DNA from: a virus
Lineage: Duplodnaviria; Heunggongvirae; Uroviricota; Caudoviricetes
IMG/VR virus record: IMGVR_UViG_2541047774_000010
Strand: one strand, 5' to 3'
DNA: 47,713 nt
Both the position numbers and the translations under genes were made by a program. Below the pieces are notes generated by a model that was not told the origin of the DNA, made no database searches, and was given only the letters and a program-made list of their open reading frames with translations. Within the stretch, counting starts at the first letter, position 1. Each line of letters begins with the position of its first letter. This document shows, one piece after another, positions 1,078-46,412 of the stretch.

Positions 1078-2313
1078 ATGGCGCTGTCTGATGCGTGGTT
1101 GCGTTCAGTCGTTGGAAAGGAACGTGATAAGGTTTTGGTTAAATCCGATCGTGATGGTCTGTCTGTCAGAGTATCACCGAAAGGTCGCGTAGTGTTCCAA
1201 TATCGTTATCAATGGGCAGGGAAAGGTGAGCGCCTTGATATCGGAACTTACCCGGCAACTGGATTAAAAGAGGCCAGAGAAGAAGTTATCCGTCTCCGTG
1301 GTGAACTCGAGTCAAACCGCAATCCACGATTAGTCAAGCAGGCTGAAAAACGAAAAGCTACTGAAGCCATGACGGTAGAGTCTGTGATCCGTGCCTGGTA
1401 TGAAGCATATTGTGTAAAAAATAAAAAAGGTTCTGAACAGATACTCCGCTCGTTTGAGCTGCACCTGTTCTCTAAAATCGGGAATATCCCTCACGATGCA
1501 GCTACATTGCATGATTGGTTAGAAGTCCTGGAGCCTCTTAGCACCAAGACTCCAGCAATAGTAGACCGATTGCTAATTAACGCAAAGCAGGCTCATGTCT
1601 GGGCGTATAAGAGAAAGCTCATTGAAACTCGCCCACTGTCGGATATCACGGGTAAAGATATGGATATCCGTAAAGGTCAGAAAAAACGGTTTCTGACACA
1701 TGATGAAATTAACATCCTTTATGCTGCGATCGATGGTTCTCGAATGGTTCCTAAATACCGAGCCTTCATTAAACTATTGCTGCATTTTGGTTGCCGTAGT
1801 TCAGAGCTAATTACTGCTAGGGTGGATGATTTTGATTTCATAAATAAGGTATGGACTGTACCACCAGAACGACATAAGACTGGGGACATAACAGGCGAAC
1901 CGCTAAAGCGGCCCATTATTGAACCGGTTGAAGAGCTTATAAAATACGTTATCTCTATGAACAACGGTTCCGATATGCTTTTTACTAAGGAAGGAAGCAG
2001 GGAGCCAGTTGGTCGGACATCATTGCAGTCGCTGCCTTACAATTTAATGCAGTTCGCATGGCGACGTTTGGGGTATCAATTTCCTCATTGGTCTCTTCAT
2101 GATTTGAGACGAACAGCACGAACAAACTTTTCTGATCTTACTGCTCCTCATATTGCTGAAATAATGCTTGGTCATAAACTGCCAGGTGTATGGCAAGTTT
2201 ATGATAAGAGCGATTATCTAGAAGAACAGCGTAAAGCTTACTGGGCATGGTGGGAGAGGGTTGAATCGATCGTTACTTGTACTGACTTAATCTCCAACGG
2301 ACAGTTTGCGTAG
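1078..2313 (+). CDS. int: Phage tyrosine integrase (P4/CP4-57 type, N-terminal arm-binding domain)
   Basis: 411-aa ORF; N-terminal LSVRVSPKGRVVFQYRYQWAGKGERLDIGTYP is typical of the DUF4102 arm-binding domain; C-terminal HDLRRTARTNF catalytic region; position immediately inside the attL junction. Confidence 0.93.
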   Translation: MALSDAWLRSVVGKERDKVLVKSDRDGLSVRVSPKGRVVFQYRYQWAGKGERLDIGTYPATGLKEAREEVIRLRGELESNRNPRLVKQAEKRKATEAMTVESVIRAWYEAYCVKNKKGSEQILRSFELHLFSKIGNIPHDAATLHDWLEVLEPLSTKTPAIVDRLLINAKQAHVWAYKRKLIETRPLSDITGKDMDIRKGQKKRFLTHDEINILYAAIDGSRMVPKYRAFIKLLLHFGCRSSELITARVDDFDFINKVWTVPPERHKTGDITGEPLKRPIIEPVEELIKYVISMNNGSDMLFTKEGSREPVGRTSLQSLPYNLMQFAWRRLGYQFPHWSLHDLRRTARTNFSDLTAPHIAEIMLGHKLPGVWQVYDKSDYLEEQRKAYWAWWERVESIVTCTDLISNGQFA

Positions 2314-4043: not shown

Positions 4044-4580
4044 TCATGCGCATGTGCGTAACTCCGATAACTCGTTAAAGCGTTCCATAAACATCCCGTA
4101 GGCATGGCCTGGCGACAGTGGAATAACTTTGAACATCTCTGTGGCAGAGATGCCTTCCAGTACTGGCCAGAAAGAGCCATCATCAAGCCCGAGATCGCGG
4201 CGTTCGGTTGCCAGCATGATGAGATCGGCATATTTCACGGGTGTACTCATAACCGGGGGTAACCCGTATTTCTCACGGATTACTGTGTCTATTTTTTCTT
4301 CCATCCGTTTATAGTCAGGAAGAAAGCGTTTCAGTGGTGCGGGGATGTCCTGGCAATACGCTTCTGTTGCATCATGCATTAACGCTTCAAAAGCAAATTC
4401 CTGCGGTACCAGCTGGCTGCAAAGCACCGCATGTTGGGCGACGCTGTAGAAGTGTGAAAGATGACCGGCAAAGCGACAGATATTTGAAAGGGAAACCGCG
4501 ATATCGTTAATATCGATGTCGTCTTTATTTATCCTGTCATAATAAAAATGCTTCCCGGAAAAAGTTTTAATAAATGACAT
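4044..4580 (-). CDS. yfdR: HD-domain phosphohydrolase, YfdR-like
   Basis: 178 aa from MSFIKTF with RBS GGAGAA; H...HD motif (SVAQHA...ALMHDATEAY); length and sequence resemble CPS-53 YfdR as recalled. Confidence 0.75.
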   Translation of the reverse strand: MSFIKTFSGKHFYYDRINKDDIDINDIAVSLSNICRFAGHLSHFYSVAQHAVLCSQLVPQEFAFEALMHDATEAYCQDIPAPLKRFLPDYKRMEEKIDTVIREKYGLPPVMSTPVKYADLIMLATERRDLGLDDGSFWPVLEGISATEMFKVIPLSPGHAYGMFMERFNELSELRTCA

Positions 4581-4707
4581 TTTGTTCTCCACGTATATGC
4601 GTTGCACCGTGCTGAATTCTGGTAAAAGGAAGCCCTCACCATCTGGCGATTATTGGGTAAATTATGTTGACATAAATGCCCCCGCAGGGGCATTTGCAGT
4701 AATGAAA

Positions 4708-5532
4708 TCAGGCGGTGAAAGTACCAATAAAGGTTTCTACTTTGCTGTCTTTGAATTTCTCAACAAGCAGATCACGAAATTCGTTAGCCATTTCTTCCTG
4801 CACCGCTTCCAGCTGAATAATGCGCAGAACCAGTACAGGACGATCGCCAGTGATAATGCTGAGGCGTAATTTAAACGGACGTTCTTTCAGACCTTCAAAC
4901 GGAACGCATTTAAATTCAAATGCCACTGGCATAATGTCTTTGGTCTTCGCTTCGACAGACTCCATCAGGGAGCGTTTGCCGCTGAAGTCATTATCTTCAA
5001 AATCAGCGGTCTGGTTCGCTTCAATTGTGATTTTACGGATCGCCGCAGCCGCTTTGGTTGCCTGAATGGCGTCACCATTAGCATCAAAGCCCACAAGGTA
5101 GTCGGCCCAGTCTTCAATCCATTCTGCCAGTGACTTCTGGGAGTTACGCTCGCCGTTAACAGACAACAGGGCAGAGAACGGTGCTGTCTTTTTCAGTTTG
5201 AGAGTGGCGGTGTTATCTGCGTGACCTGGTTCATCAATAGTACCCAGGTTAAGCACACTGACTGCTCGCATATTATCGGCATCGATAAAGCAGCGGGTGC
5301 CTTCATCTGCAAGATCTTTAGAATAACGGGTAAAGTCATCGATGCTGGCAGTGGAAAGCGCACCACGGAAACGGAAGCGATTTAAATTAAATTTTTCCAG
5401 ATCATGAATGCGGAAATTCTCAGGCAATGCCACAGCATCGGCACCAATCTTACTGATAATTTCATTAACACCCTGAGCAGAAATAAGGGCATGGATTTGA
5501 TTAATTGCGGTTGCGTCTAAGTTCTGAGACAT
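4708..5532 (-). CDS. yfdQ: DUF2303-family protein, YfdQ-like
   Basis: 274-aa ORF; length and sequence resemble CPS-53 YfdQ as recalled; same gene order as yfdP-yfdQ-yfdR. Confidence 0.75.
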
Positions 5533-5597
5533 AATAAGTCCTCACTATATAAAGATATTCAGTGATGAGATAAATAATCGGTTAATTAAGAACGATA

Positions 5598-5960
5598 TTA
5601 ATGACCTGCTGCGCGGAGTTTTCCGTCAGGTTCACCGGCAAGAGTCAGTAATTGTCCCTGGTCTTCCTGCAGAATAGTCAGGCGACCACCGCGATTGACA
5701 TACATCGGCGTTTCGGTGGTGTCTTCTTCGGAAATTTTCCCGCGGTTAGTCGGGCGAACATATGAGAGTTTGTGTTTGATTTTCACACGGTTCTCATCAA
5801 ATGGTTCGATTTCCAGGTTGAGTGAGACCTTACCTTTGGTTTTCGTGTTCATCACACCTGAAGCGACTTCACTGAGAACTGCGCCGATTTTGGTTTCAAA
5901 TACGCCGCCGTCCAGCTCCCCGATAAATGCCTGCACATCAGTACTGCGTTCGCTAGCCAT
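5598..5960 (-). CDS. yfdP: YfdP-like hypothetical protein
   Basis: 120 aa from MASERST with AGGAG 8 nt upstream; the track ORF extends further 5' from a TTG; position and size as for CPS-53 yfdP. Confidence 0.65.
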   Translation of the reverse strand: MASERSTDVQAFIGELDGGVFETKIGAVLSEVASGVMNTKTKGKVSLNLEIEPFDENRVKIKHKLSYVRPTNRGKISEEDTTETPMYVNRGGRLTILQEDQGQLLTLAGEPDGKLRAAGH

Positions 5961-6096
5961 TTTGCTGCTCCTCATCATATCGACCCTGCAAGGTCGGTTG
6001 GTTTCTCCACAAAACAGAGAAGAACACCTGCGGTGGCAGCCGCCCGGATGGATTGGGTTATGAGCCCGTCGTCCGGTGATGCTCTTCTCTGTTTTG

Positions 6097-6175
6097 TAAA
6101 AAGAGCGGTACCAGCCGGAAGCAAGTGTACAAACTGGTACCGCCAAAGCAGTGGCTGTTGTGGTGACCGGTGCTG
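6097..6175 (-). ncRNA. dicF: Candidate DicF-like sRNA ending in an intrinsic terminator
   Basis: Minus-strand stem GCGGTACCAG / CTGGTACCGC (plus 6133-6142 and 6106-6115) followed by a U-run; the segment TTTGGCGGTACCAGTTTGTAC matches the DicF core as I recall it (TTTGGCGGTATCAGTTTTAC) at about 18 of 20 positions. Recall-based, not verified. Confidence 0.35.
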
Positions 6176-6584
6176 ATCTCCGGCTTGCGGTTATTTCAGA
6201 CTCTCACGGGTGTTTAATTGCCCCGCCGAACAGCTCTTTTCCGCAATAGCTGCAATGTCTTTCGCGCATCAGCCTGCGCATTCACCACAACGCTGAGAGC
6301 ACTTAGCCAGTTACGGCACCACACTTTGTCGCGGTTCCATAAATGCCCTCATCGTTGCACCCTGGTCTCTTCCCAGGTGTCAAACCGAACCGCCACGCTG
6401 GTTAGGCGTCTTATCAGCATCATCATTGACTTGCACATTCCGGCTACCTGGTTTGTTTGCCCGAGCAAGGAGTGGATTGTCCCCTTTAACGTCCCCAGAC
6501 CGCTAACGACGCATGTGCCATACGCCGTGTTACAACCAAATTTTGTTAGTACCTTGTTTGTTGGTCTGGAAAGAAAGATAAAAT

Positions 6585-6630
6585 GAAGTTGCGCATTATG
6601 CAAGTGTTTTTGTTGCGAGATATGCAATTT
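6585..6630. promoter_or_regulatory. OL-like operator repeats and putative leftward early promoter
   Basis: Two 15-bp sites of form TTGCG-N5-TGCAA (TTGCGCATTATGCAA at 6589-6603, TTGCGAGATATGCAA at 6613-6627), similar to the sites between cI and cro; located just beyond the cI terminator. Confidence 0.4.
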
Positions 6631-6637
6631 GATGGGT

Positions 6638-6662
6638 AATGAAAAGCCACCTTCGGGTGGCT
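6638..6662 (-). terminator. Intrinsic terminator downstream of cI
   Basis: GCCACC-TTCG-GGTGGC hairpin followed on the minus strand by a T-run, about 20 nt after the cI stop. Confidence 0.6.
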
Positions 6663-6682
6663 AATTGATGAGGAGGTAAGGG

Positions 6683-7375
6683 TTAATTGTGTCGCTTAAG
6701 GGTTTGTGACTGGCTGATTAAGACCTTTCCAAAGACCATAAACCGGTGTTCATTTTCGCTGGTAATTCCCCATTCACGGTAAATCTGGTTATCAGAAATC
6801 ACCAGTAGTTTGTCAGGTATCATTTGCAGTCGTTTGACATAAATTTTATCATCAAAACCAAATACATAGATACCATCTCCATCAAACTGATTGATACTGA
6901 CATCAACGAAGATGAGATCTCCTGGCTCAATGGTTGGACACATACTGTCCCCACGAACGTTGATTACTTTAATGTGATTTGCTGGCCGTCCGCCAAACAT
7001 CGATACAGCATTATCAGTTCTGTATTCAATGGCATGAATCACATCAATGACATCACCGCCCTGGATAAGGCCATTTCCCGCACTGGCACTGATATCCAGC
7101 ATTTCAATACGGAATACATCCTTCACCTGCGCAACATCCTCACTAATACTGTTTTTACATACAGTATTACTTTTGAAGTCTGAGGTAAAGAGATCAGCAA
7201 TATCAACACCTAAGCTCCTGGCAATATTACTCAGGGCTTGTTCAGTGAATTGTTTCTGCTTACCTGTTTCCAGGCGCGAGATATTTGCCGCATCCACTCC
7301 TATTGCTTCAGCGAGATCGGCGATTTTCATGTTCTTCGCTTGGCGAAGTTGTCTGACTCGATTTCCTATGTTCAT
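6683..7375 (-). CDS. cI: CI-like prophage repressor (XRE HTH plus S24 LexA-type peptidase domain)
   Basis: 230 aa; N-terminal HTH (VRQLRQAKNMKIADLAEAIGVDAANISRLETG); Ala-Gly cleavage site (SASAG); C-terminal GDSMCPTIEPGDLIFVD with the Lys of the catalytic dyad; divergent from cro. Confidence 0.93.
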   Translation of the reverse strand: MNIGNRVRQLRQAKNMKIADLAEAIGVDAANISRLETGKQKQFTEQALSNIARSLGVDIADLFTSDFKSNTVCKNSISEDVAQVKDVFRIEMLDISASAGNGLIQGGDVIDVIHAIEYRTDNAVSMFGGRPANHIKVINVRGDSMCPTIEPGDLIFVDVSINQFDGDGIYVFGFDDKIYVKRLQMIPDKLLVISDNQIYREWGITSENEHRFMVFGKVLISQSQTLKRHN

Positions 7376-7395
7376 GCGTTTATTACATTTCTTTA

Positions 7396-7458
7396 TTGCG
7401 CGTTAAGCAAATCAACTTGCGCAAAATATTTGCGTGAAATAATATGCTCATCACGCAA
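7396..7458. promoter_or_regulatory. OR operator/promoter region between cI and cro
   Basis: Inverted repeats TTGCGC-N17-GCGCAA (7396-7424) and TTGCGTGA-N13-TCACGCAA (7430-7458); rightward promoter candidate TTGCGC (7417-7422), 17-nt spacer, TAATAT (7440-7445), then cro RBS GGAGG. Confidence 0.6.
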
Positions 7459-7472
7459 TATGTGGAGGTTAT

Positions 7473-7733
7473 ATGCAATCACCATTACGGAATGTGCGTA
7501 AAGCGCACGGATTTACTTTGCAGCATGTTGCTGCTGGCGTTCAGGTCAATCCAGCGACGCTGAGTCGTATTGAAAGACTGGAACAAATTCCATCTATCGA
7601 GCTTGCAGAACGTCTGGCCAATTTTTTTAAGGGTGAAATCAGCGAAATGCAGATTCTTTATCCGGCACGTTTTCAATCTAGCCAAAACCAGAATGGGTTT
7701 AAACCACAGGAACAGGAGATAAGCCGTGGGTAA
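7473..7733 (+). CDS. cro: Cro-like HTH repressor
   Basis: 86 aa; XRE-type HTH (LQHVAAGVQVNPATLSRIER); divergent from cI across the operator region. Confidence 0.85.
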   Translation: MQSPLRNVRKAHGFTLQHVAAGVQVNPATLSRIERLEQIPSIELAERLANFFKGEISEMQILYPARFQSSQNQNGFKPQEQEISRG

Positions 7734-8277
7734 GCATCACTGGAAAGTGGAAAAACAGCCTGAGTGGTACGTGAAAGCTGTCAGAAAAACTATCGCGGCG
7801 TTGCCGGGGGGTTACGCTGAAGCTGCTGAGTGGCTGGATGTAACAGAGAACGCTTTATTCAACCGCCTTCGTGCAGATGGCGATCAGATTTTCCCGCTGG
7901 GATGGGCAATGATTTTACAGCGCGCTGCTGGCACTCACTACATTGCGGATGCTGTCGCACAGTCTGCTGGTGGGGTGTTTGTATCGCTTCCTGAAATTGA
8001 GGAAGTAGAGAACGCCGATATAAACCAGCGCCTGCTGGAAGTCATCGAACAAATCGGGAGTTACTCAAAGCAGATTCGTTCGGCAATCGAAGATGGGGTA
8101 GTGGAGCCACACGAGCAGACAGCAATTAATGATGAGTTGTATCTGTCGATTTCGAAGCTCCAGGAGCATGCGGCACTGGTCTACAAAATTTTCTGCGCTC
8201 CAGAAAAGAGTGACGCCCGCGAGTGTGCAGCTCCGGGCGTCGTGGCGTTTTGTGTCTGTGGAGAAACTAACGCATGA
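7726..8277 (+). CDS. Early regulatory protein in the CII position (YdaT/CII-like); GTG start
   Basis: 183-aa ORF beginning at a GTG with AGGAG 8 nt upstream, overlapping the cro stop; the call rests mainly on position. Confidence 0.45.
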   Translation: MGKHHWKVEKQPEWYVKAVRKTIAALPGGYAEAAEWLDVTENALFNRLRADGDQIFPLGWAMILQRAAGTHYIADAVAQSAGGVFVSLPEIEEVENADINQRLLEVIEQIGSYSKQIRSAIEDGVVEPHEQTAINDELYLSISKLQEHAALVYKIFCAPEKSDARECAAPGVVAFCVCGETNA

Positions 8278-8602: not shown

Positions 8603-8687
8603 TTCTGCCATTCCGGGACGTTACACTGTTCAGGCACCTTATAAAACGGGTGCCGGGCGTGGAAACCCGGAATTCACCAAAGCGCAC

Positions 8688-8711
8688 AACCGCGCTCTTG
8701 CGGTTTTTTTG
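8688..8711 (+). terminator. Intrinsic terminator (tR1-like position)
   Basis: AACCGC-GCTCTT-GCGGTT hairpin followed by T7; it lies inside the track's 8274..9425 ORF, arguing that region is not coding. Confidence 0.45.
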
Positions 8712-8879
8712 TGTCATGAGCAGCATTACGCCCAAATTATGGTGGGGCGTGCAGGGCCAACTTCGGTTGGGCCGGGTTCTTTGGTGACCGGTATTTCCAC
8801 CCCTGTACGTCTCACCACCAATAAGGTCGTGGAAAGCCTTGGTGGTGAGTTATTAAAAATCACCAAAGAGGCTGCCATC

Positions 8880-16311: not shown

Positions 16312-16611
16312 AAAAATTCCTTAATACTGATAACTGGGCGCACTATACACACGTTCCTGAAGAAAGCTATAGTTTTTTGATGGGGTTGAAGATGGCTGGA
16401 TGTCTAAAATAAACATTGCTTCATATGTTCAACTATGCGTTAATGATTGCGTCGGTTTGAAGAACAGACGATATACGAAGTAGTTTACTAAAGCAGTTCT
16501 CATTTCAGGTGTTATTCACTTATTCCTTCTTTGAGTCTCTCCAATTAAGTACGAAGTCGTTTCTGTTATACAAGCCATTTATGCCGAAAGGCTCAAGTTA
16601 AGGAATGTAGA

Positions 16612-16827
16612 ATGTCAAATAAAATGACTGGTTTAGTAAAATGGTTTAACGCTGATAAAGGTTTTGGCTTTATTTCTCCTGTTGATGGTAGTAAAGATGT
16701 GTTTGTGCATTTTTCTGCGATTCAGAATGATAATTTTCGAACCTTATTTGAAGGTCAAAAGGTTACCTTCTCTGTAGAGAGTGGTGCTAAAGGTCCTGCA
16801 GCAGCAAATGTCATAATTACTGATTAA
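16612..16827 (+). CDS. cspB: Cold shock protein CspB-like
   Basis: 71 aa [38 protein letters not shown], a CspA-family protein matching CspB as recalled. Confidence 0.88.
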
Positions 16828-17108
16828 AATTCATAGTTTGTCTGTATACGATAACGAAGAAGGCTGATGCCTGAGTGGAGATACAGACAGAGTGGTGAAT
16901 ATTGGATCTCTTTAATAAATAGTAAGGAGGTCCAATACATGAAACAATGGCCAGCATATTTGGCAATAACTTAATCAGGAAAAGTATGCTAACCATTGTG
17001 GTGAAGTGCAGGTTTGCTGCATGAATAGTTTTACAGCAGAAGCTAACTGCTGGCATAGCAAAACAAAGTGCGTAAGTGGATGACTCCCACAAAAAGTACC
17101 ACAATATT

Positions 17109-19700: not shown

Positions 19701-20060
19701 ATTAATATTAAATCGGATTATTTTTAGCGCTGAATGTGAAATTTAAATAAAAAGGACTCTTCCATGAGTCAAAATCCTTGAAATCTTAAGGGTAAGATAA
19801 AAGGTCATTAGACAGAATGACACGTTTTATTAATAAATAAAGCTATTGTTTCATTCGTGTGTTTTTCTTTACAAAAGTAATCCTTGCTATGGTTGGTTAA
19901 TCATGCGTTAATGGTGTTCTGGTTTGTTACAAAATTATCTGAAGCAGTCATTGTTATAATTTTATTATTTGTACCTCTTGAGATCTCCTTGTTGGTTTTT
20001 CTCTCTGATATTTTTTTTCGGACCATTCTGCCCAAGGGCTAACTTCTTCAAAAGGTAATA

Positions 20061-20276
20061 ATGATGTCTAACAAAATGACTGGTTTAGTGAAATGGTTTA
20101 ACCCTGAAAAAGGTTTTGGTTTCATCACGCCGAAAGATGGTAGCAAAGATGTGTTTGTCCATTTCTCAGTTATTCAGAGCAACGATTTCAAAACGTTAAC
20201 TGAGAATCAGGAAGTCGAATTTGGTATTGAGAACGGACCTAAAGGCCCCGCGGCTGTTCATGTAGTGGCACTTTGA
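20061..20276 (+). CDS. cspI: Cold shock protein CspI-like
   Basis: [70 protein letters not shown] matches CspI as recalled. Confidence 0.88.
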
Positions 20277-20480
20277 GGTAGAAAATATTACAAACCATAT
20301 TCACTTTAGATGCCCGTGTTGCCATGGTTCTCAGTATAGAACATCATCTTTTGATGTTTCTGACAGGAATCCTTTCGGGGCAAAATGTATCTTTTGTAAA
20401 TCAATGATGATTACATTTGATAATATTTCACAATACTTAAATGTTAGCCGTCTGTCGTTAGATTTAAGAAAGTGAAAATG

Positions 20481-45837: not shown

Positions 45838-46412
45838 TGGCATTCAGAATGAGTGAACAACCACGGACCATAAAAATTTATAATCTGCTGGCCGGAACTA
45901 ATGAATTTATTGGTGAAGGTGACGCATATATTCCGCCTCATACAGGTCTGCCAGCAAACAGTACCGATATTGCACCGCCAGATATTCCGGCAGGCTTCGT
46001 GGCTGTTTTCAACAGTGATGAGGCATCGTGGCATCTCGTTGAAGACCATCGGGGTAAAACGGTTTATGACGTAGCGTCAGGGGACGCGTTATTTATTTCT
46101 GAACTCGGTCCGTTACCGGAAAATGTTACCTGGTTATCGCCGGAAGGGGAGTTTCAGAAGTGGAACGGCACAGCCTGGGTGAAAGATGCAGAAGCAGAAA
46201 AACTGTTCCGGATCCGGGAGGCGGAAGAAACAAAAAACAGCCTGATGCAGGTAGCCAGTGAGCATATTGCGCCGCTTCAGGATGCTGCAGATCTGGAAAT
46301 TGCAACGGAGGAAGAAATCTCGTTGCTGGAAGCATGGAAAAAGTATCGGGTATTGCTGAACCGTGTTGATACGTCAACTGCACAGGATATTGAATGGCCA
46401 GCACTGCCGTAG
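45837..46412 (+). CDS. tfa: Tail fibre assembly protein Tfa
   Basis: 191 aa, translationally coupled to stf (TAATG); typical Tfa N-terminus ([36 protein letters not shown]). Confidence 0.85.

Follow-up and report, generated by a model that had tools for sequence, protein, structure and literature searches.

What does the DNA between yfdP and the cI-like repressor gene of a lambdoid prophage encode? We addressed this question in a 47,713-nt stretch of viral DNA (IMG/VR record IMGVR_UViG_2541047774_000010), an Escherichia coli lambdoid prophage of the CPS-53/SfII type, which is referred to at its full length as the window. An earlier note, written from the sequence alone, regarded the yfdP-cI gap (5961–6682) as structured non-coding DNA with OL-type operators and suggested that it specifies a small RNA (sRNA) similar to DicF, which would inhibit cell division. 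We propose that the gap represents an untranslated leader, that of the early-left (pL) transcript, and consists of structured RNA modules, designated here as C, A, and B. For this reading as a whole, including processing and self-association of the RNA, we estimate a probability of approximately 0.55. Its anatomical part, namely, that conserved structured RNA modules make up a non-coding pL leader and that its terminator is distinct from DicF, is very probable when taken separately; the processing and self-association steps are tentative.

The gap is non-coding and modular

In agreement with the earlier note, which had seen no convincing open reading frame (ORF) between yfdP and cI, we found no credible gene in these 722 bp. 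The longest ORFs encode 122 amino acids on the plus strand and 92 and 49 amino acids on the minus strand, and none of the RefSeq features listed lies over the gap. Among complete E. coli genomes, 800 contain the full-length gap sequence with no or few differences. A BLAST comparison with deposited phages revealed a mosaic, with different relatives for each segment (Table 1). When these segments were compared on the minus strand, recurring modules became apparent, in the order C, A, and B along the minus-strand transcript. Modules B and C each occur once in the window, inside the gap and on the minus strand. A covariance model (R1) was built from the spliced module B alignment, and its use was limited to excluding a second copy in the window; on module B itself, it gave two half-hits of 40.1 and 20 bits, caused by the 79-nt insert of this copy.

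Covariation in module B

The modules are RNA-level elements, the helices of which are maintained by compensatory changes. The module B copy in the window has every element of the family: a closing helix (P1), the trinucleotide AAU, hairpin P2, a variable domain, and hairpin P3, with the 3' strand of P1 following directly after P3 without an intervening nucleotide. We aligned 91 distinct copies after splicing out the variable domain (alignment A1). Pairing was possible in 92.5% of the cells, against 84.5% in shuffled alignments. The covariation score was 0.233, compared with 0.087 after shuffling (none of 500 shuffles was as high), and controls in which the partner strand was slid reached at most 0.116. 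Double changes were present at eight of the ten P1 pairs, and as many as five types of pair were seen at one position. Each of the seven inner pairs was formed in at least 94% of copies (n=91), and pairing drops beyond 7–8 bp. The five pairs of P3 were formed in 100% of copies and included exchanges from CG to UA and from GC to AU.

P2 was judged from copies found by a scan anchored on the 3' side of the module. In these copies, the loop GGCUGA remained constant while the stem varied in a compensatory manner (GAGCA/UGCUC, GCGUA/UACGC, GCGAA/UUCGC, GCACA/UGUGC, GUGCA/UGCAC, GCUCA/UGAGC, and GCCCG/CGGGC). The loops of P2 and P3 (L2 and L3, respectively) are complementary, GCUGA with UCAGC, and 98.5% of the cells in A1 are able to pair. 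Three scans for L2 variants were performed. In four loci (L486, L491, L493, and L496; three-digit L numbers designate individual loci), GGCCGA in L2 accompanied ..UCGGC.. or ..ACGGC.. in L3, and the change from U to C in L2 was matched by a change from A to G in L3 in four of the five resolved copies. This is direct covariation in favour of a Watson-Crick pairing between L2 and L3.

The variable domain, which may be considered the cargo of the module, ranges between 6 and 178 nt and occurs in 228 distinct versions. With the 6-nt insert (L333), the core becomes a three-way junction of approximately 65 nt. In L121 (4600–4646 of IMGVR_UViG_2681813308_000001), the variable domain contains a stretch of 40 nt with 33 positions identical to E. 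coli 16S rRNA (nt approximately 242–282), and Rfam reported a small-subunit (SSU) rRNA match with an E-value of 1.9e-7. None of the other variable domains stood out against rRNA, and several contained the T-arm-like GGTTCGAATCC. Captured host rRNA as a rule for the cargo was rejected; L121 alone stood out, and plus- and minus-strand scores were otherwise alike. An anticodon-loop decoy was also rejected, as 7-nt hairpin loops resembling those of anticodons were not enriched in variable domains (5 vs 2 in shuffled sequences).

These features bear on whether the gap encodes small proteins that escaped recognition, such as the 25-amino-acid ORF containing HCSYCGKEL or a 36-amino-acid minus-strand ORF. 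These ORFs are present, a hypothetical protein is annotated beneath the match in some phage records, and Pfam searches of the gap ORFs returned three zinc-ribbon words for the 25-amino-acid ORF (E 0.02–0.05). However, every Pfam score for the gap ORFs was below the threshold. Moreover, the ATG of the 25-amino-acid ORF lies inside the P2 helix, which is conserved despite unrelated downstream sequences of 6–178 nt, and substitutions preserve pairing and not the encoded amino acids. We consider a coding function to be extremely improbable.

Modules C and A

Module C was found by a BLAST search of the remaining gap sequence against the collected loci. In its alignment (A2; 22 copies with no more than 90% identity), the window copy aligns at full length, and 8 of the 28 consensus pairs show compensatory changes; five helices covary. 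The module contains a 9-bp hairpin with the invariant loop GGCAC, a long-range helix (CGGUCYG/CRG..GCCG) enclosing a variable hairpin, a hairpin with the loop YUCACCA, and a terminal hairpin with the loop GAAGAGA. Its conserved blocks are GUAUGGCACAUGCG, the invariant GGUAGCCGGAAUGUGCAAG, and GGCGRUWCGGUKUGAC. Pairing is possible between the loop sequence CACC and a GGUG located downstream, and both are switched in the window and its close relatives, to AACC and GGUU, respectively.

Module A is the local form of a common hairpin, CACAAC-AGGUAAGAGCA ... UGCUCUUUCC-GUUGUG. Its strands co-vary between phages, being UGAGGGCA/UGCUCUCA in the window and GGUAAGAGCA/UGCUCUUUCC, GGUAAGGGUA/UACCCUUACC, or GGGAAGGACACUGG/CCAGUGUUCUUCCC elsewhere. 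We considered the 3' strand UGCUCUUU as a boxA and rejected it; this strand is variable, changes in concert with its partner and, thus, forms a helix. A second hairpin of the A type has a conserved 59-nt insert (GCAUCACCGG..GGCUCAUAACCCAAUC..) and homologues in SfII, L030, L139, and L181. It corresponds to an inverted repeat that had been placed at 6029–6096; the repeat is real and perfect over 15 bp, but its left arm lies 20 bp away from that position. The earlier description of the gap as structured non-coding DNA is, thus, upheld for the minus strand, with helices backed by covariation in relatives.

Operators and a proposed promoter

Two 15-bp TTGCG-N5-TGCAA sites had been reported on the cI side of the gap and likened to those between cI and cro. 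Both are exact, and a copy with one mismatch (TTGCGCGTTAAGCAA, 7396–7410) is located in the cI-cro gap. This motif was not enriched over the whole window (10 matches at one mismatch vs 6.4 expected), and the sites derive their meaning from position, not from count. They stand beside a proposed pL-like promoter, with the structured stretch downstream, which agrees with their designation as OL-type operators. The predicted transcription start is near 6568. In relatives, the promoter at the corresponding place is clear (L100, TTGACA, 17 nt, TACATT). Between the operators and cI, an intrinsic terminator of the cI transcript lies 21 nt past the cI stop codon, and the SfII annotation has a terminator at the equivalent position.

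Distribution and genomic setting

Each module moves as a cassette of its own between phages of Proteobacteria that are not related to one another. A 21-mer of module B (TGAATGCGCAGGCTGATGCGC) was present in at least 120 IMG/VR contigs and in the genomes of at least 120 bacterial species, and it is identical across Gamma-, Beta-, and Alphaproteobacteria. Among the matches listed, the species belonged to Enterobacterales, Pseudomonas, Burkholderiales, Halomonas, Xanthomonadales, and some Alphaproteobacteria, with a few odd metagenome-assembled genomes. A 19-mer of module C (GGTAGCCGGAATGTGCAAG) was found in at least 120 viral contigs. Module C was present in 1832 of 5426 complete E. coli genomes, approximately one third, and module B with the cargo of the window in 845, approximately one sixth. 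Many of the E. coli copies of B and C reside on P1-like plasmids of 90–100 kb, with no annotation in the entries listed. The module B core was detected in 178 deposited phages, including P1, D6, HK620, HK633, Pseudomonas D3, Stx2 phages, T1-like Klebsiella phages, phages of approximately 72 kb such as IME11 (which we take to be N4-like), and Ackermannviridae; the T1-like, N4-like, and Ackermannviridae carriers are virulent.

Module sites are limited to heavily transcribed untranslated places: pL leaders, the region between nutL and N, late-operon leaders, and tRNA arrays. A cI-like repressor is the most common protein neighbour of module B (57 of 241 loci), located upstream in the same orientation at a distance of 130–2700 nt; it is found upstream of module C, also co-stranded, in 23 of 109 loci (median, 237 nt). 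In L100 and L110, module B starts approximately 10 nt past a clear TTGACA-17-TACATT promoter. Five lambda-like or Pantoea-type loci begin with cI, a terminator, operators with a promoter, a boxA (TGCTCTTTAACAA), and a boxB hairpin, and continue with module B, a Shine-Dalgarno sequence, and an arginine-rich N-like protein. In other loci, including HK620, the modules have Q upstream and endolysin and spanin genes downstream; the module B region of HK620 lies between qut and the late terminator. tRNA genes were located within 2 kb of module B in 24 of 121 viral copies, with 45 of these 47 tRNAs on the same strand and often abutting the module. Regarding module C, tRNA genes lay within 2.5 kb in 39 of 109 copies; all 57 tRNAs were co-stranded, and 14 copies had a tRNA directly 5'. 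In the P1-like phage JL22 (L003, 2262–2594), the annotated lipoprotein gene plp overlaps the conserved module A-B array that follows tRNA-Thr, on the opposite strand; this annotation may need a second look.

Permissive searches of the window, HK620, and L121 with Rfam 15 did not identify any family matching modules A, B, or C; the remaining hits were chance hits, a weak DicF match on the L121 terminator, and the SSU rRNA hit explained by its cargo. We also found no description of the modules in literature searches by sequence and topic; subscription literature was outside these searches, and an earlier description is possible.

This distribution may also be expected from selfish or neutral cassettes, which would enter tolerant untranslated sites, as morons do, by recombination at short CACAAC/GUUGUG junctions and persist through their own mobility without a benefit to the phage or its host. 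Their mosaic spread in shuffled orders (B alone, A-B, C-A-B, and B-C-A), the repetition of CACAAC at module borders, cargo that occasionally looks captured (the 16S rRNA piece and T-arm fragments), and insertion sites that are the classic tolerant ones are consistent with this possibility. However, the 21-mer is identical across three classes of Proteobacteria, orientation relative to tRNAs and flanking genes is strict, and no transposase, integrase, or homing enzyme travels along. Furthermore, compensatory changes in four helices and one loop-loop pairing indicate selection on the folded RNA and not merely DNA mobility. We regard cassettes without a function as unlikely.

The terminator and its resemblance to DicF

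The strong hairpin that had been described on the minus strand is an intrinsic terminator, with its stem, 19-nt loop, and U-rich tail all present: GCGGTACCAG (6143–6134) pairs with CTGGTACCGC (6114–6105), followed by TCTTTTT (6104–6098). It is preceded by the linker AGCCACUGCUUUG (6156–6144). A consensus terminator scan missed this hairpin because its loop is 19 nt. In SfII and three further loci, comparable leaders also end at a GGCGGUACCAG...CUGGUACCGCC hairpin, with different loops, and this terminator recurs 3' of module B in other phages. In L004, L181, and L030, two complementary runs flank the GGCGGUACCAG terminator, a G/U-rich one (CUGUGUGUAGUC) on its upstream side and a C/A-rich one (CAACACACAAG) on its downstream side; an alternative structure around the terminator is possible there, and this pair of runs is not present in the window.

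The segment that the earlier note regarded as close to the DicF core was compared with the real dicF sequence of E. coli K-12. The best local alignment, TTTGGCGGTAYCAGTTT-TAC, is identical at 20 of 21 positions to DicF nt 13–32, and 1 of 300 shuffled sequences aligned as well. The similarity is real; however, it is limited to the U-rich lead-in and 5' arm of the terminator stem. A window segment within the integrase gene (2059–2083, plus strand; TGGCGACGTTTGGGGTATCAATTT) matches DicF nt 5–29 at 22 of 25 positions and scores 33, compared with 30 for the match in the gap; it is probably a chance match within a coding region.

A DicF-like trans-acting sRNA would consist of the last 60–70 nt before the U-run, depend on Hfq, repress ftsZ, and block division after induction. 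Besides the shared 20 nt, this possibility is favoured by the kind of locus, an early operon adjoining the immunity region as for dicF in the Qin prophage, by an intrinsic terminator with a U-tail after a single-stranded linker, and by a weak match to the DicF model in the related terminator 3' of module B in L121 (19.4 bits). However, that match falls well short of the 48-bit gathering score, and the Rfam DicF model (RF00039), which had been named as a check, gave no hit in the whole window at the gathering score or over 5500–7500 with permissive filters at E≤10. The matching stretch is the stem arm that recurs with other loops elsewhere. DicF pairs with xylR and pykA through its 5' end and with ftsZ through its 3' portion, and these target-pairing parts are not common to the two sequences. 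The predicted duplex between 6166–6098 and ftsZ (−70 to +40) had an energy of −32.0 kcal/mol in RNAduplex, which 68% of shuffled sequences equalled or exceeded, in a crude test that likewise did not separate real DicF from shuffles (15%). A DicB-like ORF had also been suggested as a companion; the downstream genes are yfdP, yfdQ, and yfdR, without dicB. A DicF-like division inhibitor in the gap is, in our view, very unlikely.

We concluded that the resemblance to DicF reflects a shared terminator type, not a DicF gene, because the hairpin with this stem arm recurs with other loops and because the L121 terminator scores only weakly with the DicF model. Both loci have an early operon by a lambdoid immunity region and a GGCGGUAYCAG... 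terminator hairpin with a U-tail. In contrast, DicF is a 53-nt sRNA, and the gap hairpin closes a structured leader of approximately 470 nt. Upstream of dicF in Qin, we found one weak A-like word and no other remnant of the modules. The terminator and DicF possibly have a distant common origin. These results correct a tempting mis-annotation, by which such terminators would be called DicF-like from the common stem arm. Across its 3' arm and U-tract, the terminator reads CGCUCUUUUUACAA (6107–6094, minus strand), near the boxA consensus CGCUCUUUAACAA; this is probably a coincidence because relatives differ there (GCCCUUUUUACA).

The sequence just upstream of the terminator has another potential role. 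CACAACA is the R1 target consensus of GcvB and is used by the prophage anti-sRNA AgvB (PMC4104026). The C/A-rich CACCACAACAGCC (6165–6153) may similarly titrate GcvB as a sponge, with CACAACA at 6163–6157, and C/A-richness is general in the 20 nt 3' of module B (C 34%, A 29%). However, most of the motif is base-paired as part of the P1 3' strand, the P1 sequences of other subfamilies are quite different (CAUCCAAUC and CAGAUCACAC) such that the motif is not family-wide, and the Rfam models of AgvB and AsxR (RF02702 and RF02703) gave no hits. A GcvB sponge is, therefore, a highly improbable function of the gap.

Proposed function of the leader

In the leader that we propose, the two repressor operators would overlap a sigma-70 pL promoter, from which a minus-strand transcript would start near 6568. 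This transcript of approximately 470 nt would be a chain of modules C, A, and B closed by the intrinsic terminator, with the second A-type hairpin and the ribosome-binding site of yfdP beyond it. Upon induction or infection, the leader may be made in bulk. Most transcripts would end at 6098, and the expression of yfdPQR-xis-int would be throttled unless polymerase reads through. RNase III may, as in lambda, cut the chain at long A-type stems and, in relatives with an extended P1, at this helix, and RNase P or E may perhaps cut the tRNA-like junction; the topology of module B may suit enzymes that read an acceptor/T minihelix, such as RNase P, although its loops are not tRNA-like. Cleavage would release stable structured RNAs, similar to the neighbouring tRNAs. 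Module B may then self-associate into a scaffold in which variable cargo is tolerated or displayed, with a conserved component of the host as its target; such a host partner is suggested by a core that hardly varies between bacterial classes.

The structured RNA immediately downstream of pL may alternatively be a cis-acting processive antiterminator, similar to put of HK022, in which the modules bind the RNA polymerase that transcribed them and carry it past the terminator at 6143–6098 into yfdPQR-xis-int. The layout is compatible, with a promoter, structured RNA, a strong terminator, and genes in this order; the absence of an N-like ORF from the leader would be explained; and the modules favour leaders of operons controlled by antitermination. 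HK022 is a lambdoid phage without N in which structured RNA likewise follows pL and terminators come next. However, the HK022 pL-nun leader, which contains putL, has no sequence relation to the gap beyond chance words and no module motif. HK022 has two put sites, whereas each module is present in the window only once, and the early-right operon contains none. Modules are also found alongside N or Q, which already fulfil this role, and in tRNA arrays of virulent phages, where there is no terminator to overcome, and minimal module B is only approximately 65 nt. We consider antitermination by the modules to be quite unlikely.

Several points weigh against the leader reading that we prefer. The proposed pL was called by eye and fell below the threshold of a consensus promoter scan of the gap, which did not list it. 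The folding energy of module C was unremarkable (z=−0.20), as was that of module B (z=−1.93), for which RNAfold recovered the four-way fold; because single-sequence energies are unremarkable, the case for RNA structure rests on covariation, not on thermodynamics. The first set of B copies was selected with a fixed 21-mer, which inflated the apparent conservation of P2 and L2, and the follow-up sets are smaller. In L485, the loop change is not compensated. In L059 (IMG/VR), P3 is swapped for a true T-arm-like hairpin (GCCGG-TTGGATT-CCGGC), with which loop pairing is impossible; this copy may have arisen by recombination with a tRNA gene. A terminator-like hairpin was present within 110 nt after B, typically 14 nt past P1, in 51 of 253 copies, compared with 11 of 400 random windows. 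A terminator directly after B is, thus, found in approximately one fifth of copies, and an end at a terminator is specific to the window and its relatives. Pairing of the loops between molecules is favoured on a geometric argument, since a loop-loop helix of 5–6 bp between two 5-bp hairpins joined by 3 nt and a minimum of 6 nt is difficult to close intramolecularly; dimers or rings like those of phi29 packaging RNA (pRNA) would result. All steps beyond a conserved structured RNA in the leader are what we infer, and a purely selfish cassette without a function would give much of the same distribution.

If the leader reading holds, the much-studied region downstream of lambdoid pL carries conserved structured RNAs that have escaped annotation. 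Between Enterobacterales and Rhizobiales, the 21-nt core is unchanged, and compensatory changes surround it; this points to a partner conserved across bacteria. The location in tRNA arrays and in the RNase III slot makes processing directly testable. The modules may also be a practical marker of phage leader regions and tRNA arrays.

Comparison with known RNAs

The stem-loop in the lambda N leader is an RNase III site. Module B occupies the same slot between nutL and N in L068, L127, L244, L191, and L082, and the extended closing stem of module B in L068 (GCUUUGGGGUGUGG/CCACACCACCAAAGC) is the lambda N-leader stem. In phage lambda (L251, 35360–35490) and the lambda-like IMG/VR phage L068, this stem and its flanks are common and the interiors are unrelated; the interior of the lambda hairpin appears to behave as an exchangeable slot. 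RNase III regulates lambda N mRNA (PMC8708148). In contrast to lambda, the phage of the window lacks nutL, boxB, and N, its P1 has 9 bp, the lambda interior is unrelated to module B, and module B is also present in late leaders and tRNA arrays.

Module B resembles tRNA and tRNA-like RNAs (the tRNA-like domain of tmRNA, YrlA, and T4 species 1 and 2) in that a 7-bp helix on a 5-bp hairpin makes a 12-bp minihelix, a second hairpin is at the place of the D arm, and the variable domain is at that of the anticodon arm; its location in tRNA arrays on the tRNA strand adds to this likeness. However, T-loop and D-loop sequences are absent from module B, as are an anticodon loop, an encoded CCA, and a G3-U70 pair, and its elbow would be a Watson-Crick loop pairing of 5–6 bp. 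ARAGORN did not detect a tRNA or tmRNA in the window. A tmRNA-like identity was rejected on this result and because P1 has a pair other than G-U at its third position. The T4 species 1 and 2 RNAs were also rejected; module B has no similarity to rnaC or rnaD, and rnaC has a true T arm. Homology to RNase P RNA, considered from the words GGUAAGAGC and GUGCAACAGAGAGCA, was rejected, as these gave only 7–10-nt matches to E. coli rnpB (E 0.2–14) and no Rfam hit.

Similar to module B, phi29 pRNA has a three-way junction and two complementary loops, which in pRNA pair between molecules, and it is, as are ROOL and GOLLD, a phage RNA of unclear or structural role. DNA packaging in the lambda-like, P22-like, P1, and T1-like carriers of the modules is not known to require RNA. 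ROOL and GOLLD are carried by phages, adjoin tRNAs, and self-assemble (PMC12286853). Unlike these RNAs, to which no sequence or model match was found in the window, HK620, or L121, modules B and C have hosts among Proteobacteria rather than Firmicutes. A bolder proposal is that the B, C, and A hairpins are undescribed classes of phage non-coding RNA, widespread in phages of Proteobacteria, and that module B is a tRNA-shaped RNA that pairs between molecules into dimers, rings, or cages, displays interchangeable cargo, is freed from early leaders, late leaders, and tRNA arrays by the tRNA- and rRNA-processing enzymes of the host, and acts on a universally conserved host target. We regard this combination as rather doubtful; if true, phages of Proteobacteria would have their own equivalent of phi29 pRNA or of ROOL and GOLLD.

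Features of the gap and its surroundings

Table 1. Positions of features and of mosaic segments in and around the yfdP-cI gap of the window
Feature	Position	Strand	Remarks
yfdR	4044–4607	−	
yfdQ	4708–5532	−	
yfdP	5598–5960	−	start codon at 5960
yfdP-cI gap	5961–6682		722 bp
Leader end	5961–6008	−	small hairpin CGACCUUGCAGGGUCG (5996–5981) and Shine-Dalgarno GAGGAG before the yfdP start
Mosaic segment	5961–6146		BLAST relatives SfIV and mEp460
Second A-type hairpin	6009–6097	−	perfect 15-bp stem ACAAAACAGAGAAGA/UCUUCUCUGUUUUGU, arms at 6009–6023 and 6083–6097
Intrinsic terminator ("DicF-like" hairpin)	6098–6143	−	10-bp stem, 19-nt loop, UCUUUUU tail
Mosaic segment	6156–6304		BLAST relative P1-like phage JL22, directly 3' of tRNA-Asn and tRNA-Thr
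Module B, junction RNA	6157–6291	−	P1, AAU, P2, variable domain, P3
Module B P1	6291–6283 with 6165–6157	−	9 bp, core 7 bp
Module B P3	6184–6166	−	GCCGG-AGAUCAGCA-CCGGC, loop AGAUCAGCA
Module B variable domain	6263–6185	−	79 nt
Module B P2	6279–6264	−	GCGCA-GGCUGA-UGCGC
Module B AAU	6282–6280	−	
Mosaic segment, ~44 bp	near 6260–6305		BLAST relatives HK620 (qut to late terminator), T1-like Klebsiella phages, Ackermannviridae phage
Mosaic segment	6285–6528		BLAST relatives phiV10 and TL-2011b
Module A, long hairpin	6288–6357	−	CAACG-A-UGAGGGCA ... UGCUCUCA-G-CGUUG, 42-nt apical insert
Module C, multi-stem RNA	6361–6527	−	28 predicted pairs, 8 compensatory; no Rfam hit
Mosaic segment	6364–6541		BLAST relative P1 variant, immediately 5' of ban
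Proposed pL promoter	6575–6603	−	−35 TTGCAT (6603–6598), 17-nt spacer, −10 TATCTT (6580–6575); read by eye
OL-type operator, proximal	6589–6603		TTGCGCATTATGCAA; exact TTGCG-N5-TGCAA; overlaps −35 and spacer of proposed pL
OL-type operator, distal	6613–6627		TTGCGAGATATGCAA; exact TTGCG-N5-TGCAA
cI-transcript intrinsic terminator	6645–6662	−	AGCCACC-CGAA-GGTGGCT, then TTTCATT; terminator scan
cI-like repressor	6683–7375	−	stop at 6683
cro	7473–7733	+	
ymfL	7726–8277	+	

Other structured RNAs were identified in the window outside the gap. On the plus strand, isrK (8634–8710; Rfam, 67.9 bits) and a C4 antisense RNA (8735–8822; 83.6 bits) are adjacent in the early-right operon, immediately 5' of a gene for a Rha-family regulator or antirepressor. 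This pair is an RNA-controlled antirepressor module of the P1/Gifsy kind. Three further plus-strand regions (16451–16890, 19917–20322, and 46180–46378) comprise two matches to the cspA-type thermoregulator and an IS009 RNA (221 bits); the thermoregulator matches are cold-shock-like genes of the late region.

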